Source: Escherichia phage ECO26.1 3-1. Taken from it: a stretch of DNA of 51,807 nt. How positions within the stretch are numbered: the first letter of the stretch is position 1; the number at the start of each line of letters is the position of its first letter. The stretch is from sequence record OR844578. One strand, 5' to 3'. A program made the translations under genes and the position numbers. Shown here piece by piece: positions 36,599 through 39,487 of this stretch. The notes under the pieces were generated by a model that worked only from the letters and a program-made list of their open reading frames with translations, did not search any database and was not told the DNA's origin.

Positions 36599-37234
36599 AT
36601 GAAAACTACTCCTATTACTATCGCTATTGACGCAATCATAAAACAAGCTTCTTCTTTGGCCGCTATGGCCAAAGTAATTAGTCAAAACCCTGCTCGTTAT
36701 AATGCTATTCTAGAAACTCTTCGACGCCCTGGACTTAGTAATTATGAAAGCCGAGTAATTATTACAGGTGTTGGTAAGAATGCTAATATTGCAACTAAAG
36801 CTTCTGAGACATTTGCTTCACTCGGTATCCCTAGTATGTACTTGAACACTGGGCATTATTCTCACGGTGATGCAGGATTCATTGCGCCTAATGATGTGTT
36901 GATTCATATTAGTCGTTCTGGTAAAACTGAAGAAATGATAGGCGTGGCTAAGCATCTTAAAATGATTCGCCCGAACGTCAAACAGATTCTGTTGCATTGT
37001 AACCCTGACATTCCACAAGAATACGAAGCTCTTTTTGATTATACGTTCTGTACCGGTATCGCGGTAGAAGTTGACGAGAACTCTTTAGCTCCGACTATGT
37101 CCACTACATTGTTGTTAGCGCTTATCGATACGTTCGCTATCAACCTTTCGTCTGAGCGTGGATTTACCTCTAATGACTTCCTTAAGTTCCATCCAGGCGG
37201 TGCACTAGGTGCCATGTTACGAGGCGAACAATGA
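36599..37234 (+). CDS. SIS-domain sugar-phosphate isomerase (KdsD/GutQ-like arabinose-5-phosphate isomerase)
   Basis: ITGVGKNANIATKASETFASLGIPS...HGD...ISRSGKTEE fits the KdsD SIS pattern; 211 aa. Confidence 0.75.
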   Translation: MKTTPITIAIDAIIKQASSLAAMAKVISQNPARYNAILETLRRPGLSNYESRVIITGVGKNANIATKASETFASLGIPSMYLNTGHYSHGDAGFIAPNDVLIHISRSGKTEEMIGVAKHLKMIRPNVKQILLHCNPDIPQEYEALFDYTFCTGIAVEVDENSLAPTMSTTLLLALIDTFAINLSSERGFTSNDFLKFHPGGALGAMLRGEQ

Positions 37235-37374
37235 AAGCAATAACAATAGGACTTTTACTATTGATGCTTGTCATGACTATCTACTGGAGCTTAACGGCTC
37301 CAGTAATGATTCCAACACTTGTAATTGGATGGATTATGATTGGACTACAAGCAAAGTATGAATGCTTTAACTAG
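37231..37374 (+). CDS. small membrane peptide (47 aa)
   Basis: ATGA overlap with SIS gene; single TM helix. Confidence 0.35.
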   Translation: MKAITIGLLLLMLVMTIYWSLTAPVMIPTLVIGWIMIGLQAKYECFN

Positions 37375-37415
37375 AATAGTGTACAATACTCCTACTTACC
37401 AATGAGGACTTCAAC

Positions 37416-39101
37416 ATGAAAAAAGCTGTTATTCTTGGTGCTGGACTGGCGACTCGTTTATATCCAATAACGCATCATATTCCTAAGGTGCTTGTTAACT
37501 ATAAACAAGACACTATTCTGAGCAATTTGTATACAATTTATTCTGACCTTGGCGCAGATGAAATTATTGTAGTAGTTCATTCAAAATTTGCTGAAACTGT
37601 TCGAGCTTATTGTGAGCAAGAAGGGTTCAATGTGACTATTCGTACAGTTGATGAAGCGTACGGTTCTGCTTATGCTCTTGCTAAATTACACAAAGATTTA
37701 GACGGCCATAATGTAATTGTTAACTGGTGTGATATTATTCCCGATTTTGGTTCATGGTCTTGGAATGTTAACGCAATCTATGTTAAGGGTGACGAATGTC
37801 GATATAATTTCGATGGTGAAAATATCACTAACGTAGGTTCAACAGGTGGTAATGTTGTAGGAATTTATCAGTTCAAAGACTGGGAATTCTACATGGGTTC
37901 TACCGATGAGGAAATTCATGAATACTGCAAAGGACGTGATTTCGTAGAATTCCTTTACAGCGGCGCATTCAATAAATCAGAGCTTATGAATCTAATTGAT
38001 TTAGGTGATATGCCTAAACTTGAAAAAGCTCATGAAGTTCGTGAACTTAATCGTAGTTTTAATGCAGTTGAAATTGGTGAAGAAACTGTAACTAAATTCG
38101 CATTAACCGAACAGGGTCGAGCTCTTCAGAAAGATGAGATTTCATGGTATCTTAAAGTGAAATCAGATTCAGTTCCTCAGTTAGTTTCTGTTAATGAAAA
38201 TAACTTTGAAATGGAACGCATTAAAGGTAAGCCGGCATTTGAATATATTAAATCCAAATCAAGTCTTGCTCGTCCACAAATTGTTGATGCAATTTTAGAT
38301 GCACTGAAATTCAGCACAGACACTTATTTTGTAAGTCCTGAAACTGTTCGCCGTGATTTCACTAAAGAATTCTATACGAAAGTTATTGATCGTTGTGAAA
38401 GCATTCAACCATTGATTGATTCATTTGGTAAAATCACCCATGTGAACTACACTAAGATTGGGCGTCTGAAGCCAATGCTGAAACAAGCTTTAGAACACCT
38501 TATTCGTTATCATAACCGTTCTCAGGGACAGTACTCTGTTATTCATGGTGACCCGAACTTCAGTAATACTATGATTACTGATAACGGTGAAGTCAAGTTT
38601 ATCGACCCTCGTGGATATTTTGGGGAAACCAAGATTTACGGGCCAAAATTGTACGATGAAGCTAAAGTGCTTTATGCTGTTTCAGGTTATGATGAATTCA
38701 ACGCTAATCCGACCTGGGGACAGTTTACTATTGATGAAACAACTTGTAATGTGACTATTAACATCAATCCATTAGTTTACAAATATGGAAAGATGAGTTC
38801 GTTTAACGAGTATCATCATTTGGCAGTGGCAATTATCTGGATTGCATTAGGTGGTTATTTCAAGAATAATCCACTTAAAGCGGTAGCTGCATATTATAAA
38901 GGTATGGAACTTCTGACTAAGCAATTACGTAACATGGGCCGTGTACTTCAAGACGGCTCTATTAGTTATGACGTAGCAGAACCTGTAACGGCTACTCTGA
39001 TTACAAAAAATCCTGGTAAATGGGTACTAACTGATAAAGAAACTGGTGTTTCTTATCGTCCAATTGGTGGCGATATCACTCATCAATGGGAACGAATCTA
39101 A
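37416..39101 (+). CDS. bifunctional sugar-1-phosphate nucleotidyltransferase / APH-fold sugar kinase
   Basis: N-terminus MKKAVILGAGLATRLYPIT...PK aligns with RmlA-type NTP transferases; C-terminus IHGDPNFSN ... FIDPRGYFG matches the choline/anomeric-kinase Brenner motif; SD GAGGA. Confidence 0.8.
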   Translation: MKKAVILGAGLATRLYPITHHIPKVLVNYKQDTILSNLYTIYSDLGADEIIVVVHSKFAETVRAYCEQEGFNVTIRTVDEAYGSAYALAKLHKDLDGHNVIVNWCDIIPDFGSWSWNVNAIYVKGDECRYNFDGENITNVGSTGGNVVGIYQFKDWEFYMGSTDEEIHEYCKGRDFVEFLYSGAFNKSELMNLIDLGDMPKLEKAHEVRELNRSFNAVEIGEETVTKFALTEQGRALQKDEISWYLKVKSDSVPQLVSVNENNFEMERIKGKPAFEYIKSKSSLARPQIVDAILDALKFSTDTYFVSPETVRRDFTKEFYTKVIDRCESIQPLIDSFGKITHVNYTKIGRLKPMLKQALEHLIRYHNRSQGQYSVIHGDPNFSNTMITDNGEVKFIDPRGYFGETKIYGPKLYDEAKVLYAVSGYDEFNANPTWGQFTIDETTCNVTININPLVYKYGKMSSFNEYHHLAVAIIWIALGGYFKNNPLKAVAAYYKGMELLTKQLRNMGRVLQDGSISYDVAEPVTATLITKNPGKWVLTDKETGVSYRPIGGDITHQWERI

Positions 39102-39487
39102 TGCACCGTGTAGAAAACATGCTTAATCTTTGTTTTGATGTCGATGATTGTATAACAGAGTGGAATAACAATCGTGATTACGTGAACTTCAAACCAGACG
39201 TCGAAATGGTGTCTGCCATTAATGCCCTGTATGATGCAGGGCATACCATAACGCTTTACACTGCTCGCGGTATGAAGTCAGTAGGTCCTGGTCGTATAGC
39301 AATTGACATTCTCCCAAGTCTGATTCAGAACTTAGCAAACATTGGCTTGAAGTACCATAATTTGCTAACACATAAACCAGTATATGATTGGATTATCGAC
39401 GACAAAGCTATGCGTCCTGACGAATTCAAAGCTCTTATGAATAAAGGCGAATTCGAAACATTTAAATCATATAAACCTAATCTATAA
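39101..39487 (+). CDS. HAD-superfamily phosphatase
   Basis: Motif I FDVDDC, motif II ITLYTAR, motif IV IIDDK; TAATG overlap with upstream gene. Confidence 0.65.
   Translation: MHRVENMLNLCFDVDDCITEWNNNRDYVNFKPDVEMVSAINALYDAGHTITLYTARGMKSVGPGRIAIDILPSLIQNLANIGLKYHNLLTHKPVYDWIIDDKAMRPDEFKALMNKGEFETFKSYKPNL

Follow-up and report, generated by a model that had tools for sequence, protein, structure and literature searches.

The genome of Escherichia phage ECO26.1 3-1 (sequence record OR844578) carries, directly behind the DNA polymerase gene 43, three adjacent genes for an isomerase with a SIS domain, a bifunctional protein of a nucleotidyltransferase and a kinase domain, and a small phosphatase of the HAD type. 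We analysed them in a stretch of 51.8 kb, here called the window, which belongs to a Mosigvirus, a T4-like phage of the RB69 group. Very probably these three genes (the trio) represent the sugar-donor half of the Mosigvirus island for cytosine arabinosylation and produce uridine diphosphate (UDP)-D-arabinofuranose from ribulose-5-phosphate. The window itself shows that the genes are intact and provides the folds, the catalytic motifs, orthology, synteny and gene fusion; for the enzyme activities, UDP as the donor, the sugar's furanose form and the chemistry of the DNA we rely on the literature about near-identical proteins, and we infer that the phage of the window behaves like these characterised phages.

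The pathway as such is already known, and a study by Mahler from 2025 reportedly counts among those that made it so. It was proposed in 2018 (Thomas), and its biochemistry followed in 2025-2026 (He 2026, Lee 2026). Arabinose was found in RB69 DNA, and ORF055c and ORF53_52c were proposed as genes for UDP-arabinose (Thomas 2018, PMC6024577); later the pathway genes of RB69 were named gp55, gp52:53 and gp51 (Lee 2026, PMC13326640). Over the 3.3 kb around the trio, Escherichia phage moskry matches with 99.7% and RB69 with 97.8% identity, and the gene order is the same. An earlier reading of this DNA (the original prediction) had proposed that the phage makes its own nucleoside diphosphate (NDP)-pentose for DNA glycosylation in place of the host's UDP-glucose, and that its DNA sugar is not the glucose of the T-even phages. 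The orthology to the RB69 genes bears out the first point and the arabinose in RB69-group DNA the second (PMC6024577, PMC13326640). Which genes reported for RB69-type arabinosylation correspond to the trio had been left open in that prediction; they are the ones just named.

Three intact genes and the folds of their products

All three genes are intact open reading frames (ORFs) of the + strand, coding for 211, 561 and 128 amino acids. The first protein matches the Pfam SIS model with 41.2 bits (cut-off 25, E=1.7e-10), and a phmmer comparison with solved arabinose-5-phosphate isomerases finds 3etn (5.5e-25), 5uqi (6.4e-23) and KdsD from E. coli (2xhz, 6.5e-19). Its residues K60, H89, E112, E157 and H198 align with K59, H88, E111, E152 and H193 of KdsD, which we take to be the active-site residues of that enzyme, and the protein falls into PHROG 5670, 'arabinose 5-phosphate isomerase' (E=2e-116). 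A pair of CBS domains is not present in the 211 residues, and the curated NCBIfam cut-offs are missed both for TIGR00393 (KpsF; 112.7 against 203.7 bits) and for the KdsD family (107 against 505). Therefore we regard it as a single-domain isomerase like 3etn and 5uqi. KdsD and GutQ, 3etn from Bacteroides fragilis and c3406 from E. coli CFT073 (5uqi) share with the phage protein the SIS fold, the Lys/His/Glu/Glu/His set and, as predicted for the phage, the conversion of ribulose-5-phosphate to arabinose-5-phosphate. However, KdsD and GutQ possess tandem CBS domains and their product goes to Kdo, while the product of the phage isomerase, which lacks these domains, would go to DNA glycosylation.

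In the bifunctional protein the Pfam NTP_transferase profile covers residues 3-99 (39.1 bits against a cut-off of 21.2, E=8.4e-10). LicC (1jyk) is the best match of this domain in a single-sequence search of solved structures; when a profile built from 39 homologues is used, HddC, a heptose-1-phosphate guanylyltransferase, comes first among the solved structures (5xhw/6jq8, 2.4e-13), ahead of LicC and then of GDP-mannose pyrophosphorylases and RmlA-type enzymes, and MurU ranks lower. The RmlA-type signature reads G8-A-G-L-A-T-R14-L together with K24. In an alignment of the 39 homologues, whose identity goes down to 28%, the residues G10, R14, L15, K24 (GxGxRL...K), D106, D195 and D198 are invariant in the nucleotidyltransferase domain, and K227, E241, H377-G-D379-x4-N384 and I396-D397-P-R-G in the kinase domain. 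The latter thus carries the features of the APH fold, namely the HxDxxxxN catalytic loop, the Mg-binding Asp (IDxxG), the ATP-binding Lys and Glu and the bilobal fold. By itself the phage protein does not score as Pfam APH, a model which is recorded for homologues.

An AlphaFold2 model of all 561 residues has a predicted local distance difference test score (pLDDT) of 93.1, and Foldseek returned only nucleotidyltransferases among the 50 matches listed for it, with RmlA structures at probability 1.00; LicC, HddC and MurU also belong to the fold matches of the N-terminal domain. When the kinase domain was modelled alone (residues 205-561, pLDDT 91.3), the best fold match was APH(2'')-IIa (3ham; E=4.7e-8, probability 1.00), and further matches, all at probability 1.00, were phosphotransferases for ethanolamine, choline (LicA), macrolides and capreomycin (including 2qg7 and 4r77). 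The C-terminal tail (residues ~510-561, window 38940-39101) is beta-rich and poorly conserved, with a pLDDT of 75-83; distant homologues, which span 89-90% of the query, lack it. An assignment as a true RmlA equivalog was rejected (rmlA_long 25.7 against a cut-off of 320 bits), LicC and HddC being the nearest structures solved so far. What is confirmed is a fusion of an RmlA-superfamily nucleotidyltransferase with an APH-fold kinase, at the superfamily level only.

The same two folds are known as pairs of kinase and nucleotidyltransferase acting in this order: LicA/LicC are choline kinase and CTP:phosphocholine cytidylyltransferase, and AmgK/MurU are an anomeric kinase for N-acetylmuramic acid (MurNAc) and a uridylyltransferase. 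These are separate proteins using choline or free MurNAc, whereas in the phage both domains are fused with the transferase at the N-terminus, and the substrate of the kinase would be a sugar 5-phosphate.

The third protein is identical in 128 of 128 residues to PDB 9iqw ('Capsule biosynthesis protein') and shows homology to 1xpj, another small HAD protein (E=4.9e-10). All four HAD motifs are present (D13-V-D15-D-C, T54 in TARG, K92 in THKP and D100-D101), with a Cys in motif I in place of the usual Thr/Val. To the NCBIfam capsule biosynthesis phosphatase TIGR01689 it scores 49.5 bits, below the cut-off of 162. While the mechanical ORF starts with the ATG at 39086, we prefer the ATG at 39101, because it overlaps the upstream stop codon (TAATG) and agrees with both the RB69 annotation and the crystallised construct 9iqw. 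The names 'phosphoheptose isomerase' (PHROG, RefSeq) and 'capsule biosynthesis protein' are misnomers for this HAD protein. In all these assignments, i.e. three intact + strand genes for a KdsD-like SIS isomerase, an RmlA-type nucleotidyltransferase fused to an APH-fold kinase and a HAD phosphatase starting at 39101, our results coincide with the original prediction.

The protein sequences of the trio recur exactly in hundreds of phage contigs, and 153 phage records span at least 80% of the 3.3-kb region. Among 50,697 phage records the gene for the nucleotidyltransferase/kinase is found in 373, that for the HAD phosphatase in 374 and that for the SIS isomerase in 275, so that together with the exact recurrence the trio is not a product of chance. 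Isomerase, nucleotidyltransferase/kinase and phosphatase follow each other in the same order in three other phages: Acj61 of Acinetobacter (55% identity), Virsaitis27 of Erwinia and S-SRM01 of Synechococcus (26%). More distant homologues (31-35% identity) consist of one polypeptide of 890-955 amino acids with the domain order HAD, SIS, nucleotidyltransferase, kinase, which by the classic gene-fusion argument points to a shared pathway.

Examples of this fusion of four activities are P0084 (L002, 8001-10781) and P0091, the latter from the transcriptome of Ceratiomyxa fruticulosa. One gene of this kind shares its contig with MutS-HNH, Rpb2, RNA_pol_N and an autophagy-related gene, and the contig has the look of a giant virus. 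Giant viruses, too, may be able to make a sugar of the NDP-arabinose type.

Order of the steps and rival functions

According to the proposed pathway, the isomerase would convert ribulose-5-phosphate to arabinose-5-phosphate, which the C-terminal APH-fold kinase domain would phosphorylate with ATP at C1, giving arabinofuranose-1,5-bisphosphate. The Mg-dependent small HAD phosphatase would take off the 5-phosphate, and the N-terminal nucleotidyltransferase domain would form UDP-D-arabinofuranose from arabinofuranose-1-phosphate and UTP. For the related proteins of phage HY126, He et al. 2026, as summarised in PMC13326640, describe AfhE as an arabinose-5-phosphate kinase (at C1) and UDP-arabinose pyrophosphorylase, and AfhF as a Mg-dependent phosphatase converting arabinose-1,5-bisphosphate to arabinose-1-phosphate. 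UDP-arabinofuranose, not UDP-arabinopyranose, is the donor that supported arabinosylation in vitro (PMC13326640). Of the route drawn in the original prediction, the step from ribulose-5-phosphate to arabinose-5-phosphate and the NDP-pentose at the end are retained; the free pentose between them is dropped, since the order reported in that summary runs via the 1,5-bisphosphate (PMC13326640).

This order, with the kinase before the phosphatase and no free pentose, is held less surely than the rest, as it is founded on second-hand text and chemical logic. In the alternative, the same pathway would start with the phosphatase: free D-arabinose is released from arabinose-5-phosphate, phosphorylated by the anomeric kinase and activated by the nucleotidyltransferase. 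Exactly this is printed in Table 1 of PMC13326640, where gp51 'dephosphorylates Araf5p to Ara' and the kinase domain 'phosphorylates Ara to Araf1p', while the paper's running text, with reference to He et al. 2026, has AfhE act on arabinose-5-phosphate and AfhF on arabinose-1,5-bisphosphate. The fold matches of the kinase domain, which are APH and choline kinases, would suit a phosphatase-first order as well. NahK, AmgK and glucosamine kinase, all of them anomeric sugar kinases of the APH fold, use free sugars. However, free D-arabinose would be mainly a pyranose, whereas both the sugar in the DNA and the accepted donor are furanoses, and a 5-phosphate kept until C1 is phosphorylated would lock the furanose ring. 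On balance we consider it unlikely that the phosphatase acts first.

The kinase-first order also corresponds to the logic of the GmhA/HldE/GmhB pathway, by which Gram-negative bacteria make ADP-heptose for lipopolysaccharide (LPS): a SIS isomerase, an anomeric kinase giving a bisphosphate, a HAD phosphatase and a nucleotidyltransferase; HddC, the best solved match of our profile, points in the same direction. HldE is, like the 561-residue phage protein, a fusion of kinase and nucleotidyltransferase, but with a ribokinase-like kinase, a cytidylyltransferase-like transferase and the reversed domain order, instead of the APH-fold kinase and RmlA/LicC-like transferase of the phage. Further differences are the pentose substrate, the UDP carrier and a HAD protein of the small 1xpj/TIGR01689 type rather than GmhB. 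None of the trio proteins matches an HldE or GmhB family in Pfam or NCBIfam, and the heptose pathway is therefore an analogue in logic only.

Several points weigh against the UDP-arabinofuranose pathway as proposed here. About 100 phage records lack the SIS gene although they contain those for the nucleotidyltransferase/kinase and the HAD phosphatase; the isomerase would be dispensable where the host enzymes KdsD or GutQ can supply arabinose-5-phosphate. By sequence, the matches of the kinase domain to Fructosamin_kin, EcKL and RIO1 all stay below the Pfam cut-offs. For TH1_060 of the phage Thanatos, a homologue of the bifunctional gene, no pyrophosphorylase activity was found with xylose-1-phosphate, which is not the arabinose substrate; that TH1_060 is essential for propagation speaks, by contrast, in favour of the pathway (PMC12838424). 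For the step order and the UTP specificity the source is He et al. 2026 by way of the summary in PMC13326640, whose Table 1 gives the opposite order. Finally, the activities in the phage of the window itself are predicted from homologues.

In Dhakavirus (JS10; L006, 6062-6940) and in Klebsiella phages the genes for nucleotidyltransferase/kinase and phosphatase were found and the SIS isomerase was not detected; there, presumably, KdsD/GutQ of the host provide the arabinose-5-phosphate.

That another activated pentose, e.g. xylose or a deoxypentose, or another nucleotide carrier is made seems very improbable to us. The Thanatos study reports a 'deoxypentose' and a UDP-xylose-forming activity of another protein (PMC12838424), and the nucleotide specificity is not readable from sequence, as the nearest solved relatives use CTP, GTP, dTTP or UTP. 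On the other hand, the proteins are 97-100% identical to those of the RB69 group, where the sugar is D-arabinofuranose as determined by nuclear magnetic resonance (NMR) and gas chromatography-mass spectrometry, the arabinose-5-phosphate isomerase active site of the first enzyme is intact, and arabinosylation in vitro was obtained with the furanose form of UDP-arabinose.

A role of the trio at the cell surface, in making a Kdo, heptose or capsule precursor instead of modifying DNA, can practically be dismissed. Many phage records do label such proteins 'KpsF', 'GlmU', 'capsule biosynthesis protein' or 'phosphoheptose isomerase', the nearest curated family of the HAD protein is the capsule biosynthesis phosphatase, although below its cut-off, and in S-SRM01 the trio lies amid many glycosyltransferases and sugar epimerases. 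But the cut-offs of the curated equivalogs are all missed widely, KdsA, KdsB and KdsC were not detected among the cluster proteins with Pfam and NCBIfam, the trio replaces the 42/b-gt module of T4 between 43 and uvsX and co-occurs with a 5-hydroxy-dCMP (5hodCMP) synthase, and RB69 DNA contains arabinose (PMC6024577, PMC13326640). The original prediction had itself set its pathway against a Kdo pathway with a transferase of the CMP-Kdo synthetase fold; the nucleotidyltransferase is LicC/HddC/RmlA/MurU-like, and the pathway survives this comparison. The Kdo/capsule function was rejected, as neither a transferase of the CMP-Kdo synthetase type nor a Kdo-8-phosphate synthase or phosphatase is found among the cluster proteins.

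The trio of S-SRM01 (L007, 5411-7823) is surrounded by several glycosyltransferases, two nucleotide-sugar epimerases and one methyltransferase. A thymidylate-synthase homologue is not annotated within the 13.5 kb around it, and this cassette may feed a different glycan.

The surrounding island and the acceptor base

The genes and domains of the island are listed in Table 1.

Table 1. Positions in the window of the trio, its domains and the neighbouring genes
Feature	Position	Strand	Basis or remark
DNA polymerase gene 43	33847-36558		directly before the trio
Arabinose-5-phosphate isomerase, 211 aa, = RB69 gp55	36599-37234	+	single SIS domain
Hydrophobic 47-aa ORF, similar to RB69 gp54	37231-37374	+	PHROG 3610, E=7e-27
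Bifunctional 561-aa protein, = RB69 gp53:52, HY126 AfhE type	37416-39101	+	
Nucleotidyltransferase domain, residues 1 to ~205 of the 561-aa protein	37416-38030	+	Pfam NTP_transferase
APH/choline-kinase-fold domain, residues ~206-561 of the 561-aa protein	38031-39101	+	model fold matches
Cap-less small HAD phosphatase, 128 aa, = RB69 gp51, HY126 AfhF type	39101-39487	+	
U32-family iron-sulphur (Fe-S) protein, 386 aa, = RB69 gp50	39545-40705	+	Pfam Peptidase_U32
79-aa protein, RB69 gp49, Mosigvirus-only family	40702-40941	+	
Thymidylate-synthase-fold dCMP 5-hydroxylase (5hodCMP synthase), = RB69 gp48	40984-41700	+	PDB 9iqc/9ir2
Putative first DNA arabinosyltransferase, 299 aa, RB69 gp47+gp46	41700-42599	+	RB69 synteny, PHROG 3891
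Thymidylate-kinase-like nucleotide kinase, RB69 gp45	42601-43149	+	PHROG 761 E=6e-45, synteny, PMC13326640 Table 1
dCTP pyrophosphatase, gp56 homologue, RB69p028 type	51230-51751	+	Pfam dUTPase_2, 29.4 bits

The closest known systems are gp55/gp53:52/gp51 of RB69, AfhE/AfhF of HY126 and gp83/gp82/gp81 of Acinetobacter phage DLP3, to which the genes of the window are orthologous with the same order and position. Also the neighbours, i.e. the U32 protein, the 5hodCMP synthase, the glycosyltransferase and the kinase, are shared with these modules. There is no difference of substance to the RB69-type modules, except that the genes at 37416-39101 and 41700-42599 are each one intact ORF in the window and both are split in the GenBank record of RB69 (gp53/gp52 and gp47/gp46). 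Our intact ORFs agree with the published view that these splits are sequencing errors (PMC6024577, PMC13326640).

The comparison with the gene order of T4 places the trio directly after gene 43 in the imm region, as had been noted before. In T4 the interval between 43 and uvsX comprises imm.1, imm, 42, b-gt and segA; in the phage of the window the whole DNA-modification module of T4, not imm alone, is exchanged. JS10 keeps imm beside gene 43, and in moskry imm is found near sp. Within the trio region there is additionally a short, conserved and strongly hydrophobic ORF of 47 codons which is absent from the original prediction. Its start overlaps the stop codon of the isomerase gene (ATGA), to which it is translationally coupled, and an ORF of the same size occupies the same slot in Virsaitis27. 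Scans for promoters and terminators gave sites no more numerous than in shuffled sequence.

Both T4 and the phage of the window use the slot between 43 and uvsX for a thymidylate-synthase-fold enzyme which modifies dCMP, followed by glycosyltransferases which decorate the DNA. T4 has the dCMP hydroxymethylase of gene 42 and alpha- and beta-glucosyltransferases, takes UDP-glucose from the host and attaches the sugar via a hydroxymethyl linker, whereas the phage of the window would have its own donor and a sugar ether-linked to 5-hydroxycytosine.

With regard to the acceptor base the original prediction has to be corrected. It had expected arabinosyl-hydroxymethylcytosine, but the cytosines of RB69 are beta-D-arabinofuranosyl-(1-3)-alpha-D-arabinofuranosyl-O-5-hydroxy-dC, i.e. 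an ether without a methylene bridge, according to tandem mass spectrometry and NMR (PMC13326640), and the assignment as hydroxymethylcytosine was called erroneous (PMC13390438). RB69 gp48, a flavin-bearing homologue of thymidylate synthase, makes 5-hydroxy-dCMP with O2 (PMC13326640).

The corresponding protein of the window (40984-41700) is identical in 234 of 238 residues to PDB 9iqc/9ir2. We aligned it with E. coli ThyA, T4 gp42 and four phage homologues; its residues C163, E160, N186 and D194 stand at the ThyA positions C146, L143, D169 and N177. At the position of D169 an Asn, the published signature of 5hodCMP synthases, is found in the protein of the window and in those of Acj61, JS10, Virsaitis27 and Thanatos-2, while T4 gp42 has an Asp. 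A thymidylate-synthase homologue with this D169N exchange is present in every relative inspected for it. From N186 the phage of the window is therefore predicted to make 5-hydroxycytosine and not hydroxymethylcytosine.

The remaining steps can be sketched as follows. The flavin hydroxylase with the thymidylate synthase fold would produce 5-hydroxy-dCMP, and the dCTP pyrophosphatase (51230-51751) would both supply its dCMP and remove dCTP. Two glycosyltransferases would put arabinose on 5-hydroxycytosine, one encoded at 41700-42599 and the second outside the window. For the first of these no Pfam or PDB match was obtained by sequence; the role of the RB69 gene (gp47/gp46) as first arabinosyltransferase was proposed in PMC13326640. 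The mono- and di-arabinosylated cytosines formed in this way would protect the DNA against restriction enzymes and Cas nucleases.

The U32 protein and a chorismate mutase

The gene directly behind the trio encodes a protein which matches the Pfam profile Peptidase_U32 with 42.2 bits (cut-off 22.4) and has no match in a sequence search of the PDB. In 60 sampled homologues ten Cys residues never vary, those of a CX4CX3CX2C motif at the C-terminus among them. This protein is far better conserved than its neighbours in the island: it is at least 80% identical across genera, including Shewanella phage Thanatos-2, where the nucleotidyltransferase/kinase shows only ~54%. In the literature examined gp50 is labelled 'sugar or heterocycle reductase' only.

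In Virsaitis27 and Thanatos-2 the gene after the U32 gene, overlapping it by 4 nt, is a chorismate mutase (Pfam CM_2, above cut-off). Searching with Pfam or tblastn, such a mutase was found in 54 phage records outside Mosigvirus, from many enterobacterial genera and Shewanella, which are most of the 68 U32-bearing phage records outside this genus. Wherever the neighbours are annotated, the mutase gene lies next to the U32 gene, to the hydroxylase gene or to both, and in most, perhaps all, of these ~68 phages it separates the two as their immediate neighbour. The loci compared for this pairing are 39545-40705 with 40702-40941 in the window, L009 (4992-6502) and L010 (6001-7391). In Mosigvirus the slot of the mutase is occupied by the genus-restricted gp49 of 79 residues. 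When gp49 was tested as a possible diverged chorismate mutase, Pfam gave no match up to E=10, and BLASTP showed no similarity to the mutases of Virsaitis27 and Thanatos-2.

Chorismate mutase makes prephenate. RlhA, TrhP and UbiU/V, which belong to the U32 family, are hydroxylases that need prephenate but no O2; the product of RlhA is 5-hydroxycytidine in rRNA, and TrhP serves as backup for an enzyme that requires O2 (PMC5727448, PMC6599085, PMC10990095). The pairing of U32 protein and chorismate mutase therefore suggests a hydroxylase of this kind, and we tentatively put forward, as a possibility somewhat less probable than its contrary, that gp50 may by analogy be an O2-independent, prephenate-dependent cytosine C5-hydroxylase providing a second route to 5-hydroxycytosine.

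Metagenomic relatives of the U32 protein (50-58% identity) are encoded beside genes for dCMP deaminase, deoxynucleoside kinase, NT5C deoxyribonucleotidase and nucleoside deoxyribosyltransferase (L011, 5447-7086; L012, 6001-8888). L011 is a contig of 466 kb resembling a jumbo phage, with UDG, a DnaE-type polymerase, SSB and SLT.

Acinetobacter is a strict aerobe. In Acj61, the one Acinetobacter cluster inspected, a U32 gene was not seen, and Acinetobacter is outside the ten commonest host genera of U32-bearing phages, which fits an anaerobic route. The E. coli Dhakavirus JS10, which is without a U32 gene, does not fit it. We did not find the link between U32 protein, chorismate mutase and hydroxylase in the literature examined; He et al. 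2026 or Mahler et al. 2025 may already contain it. If the proposal is true, arabinosylation could continue in the anoxic gut even though the flavin hydroxylase, which depends on O2, cannot function there.

For the phage of the window the value of this analysis is mainly corrective, as the labels GlmU, phosphoheptose isomerase, capsule biosynthesis protein, peptidase and thymidylate synthase mislead and can be replaced. The U32 protein with its chorismate mutase partner is the one place in the island where novelty might remain. To our knowledge NDP-arabinose is not a normal metabolite of enterobacteria. The pathway explains how the RB69 group and many other T4-like phages can carry arabinosyl-5-hydroxycytosine at every cytosine without a sugar donor from the host, and since this modification changes how sensitive the DNA is towards restriction enzymes, Cas nucleases and type IV systems, it is relevant to phage therapy and phage engineering.

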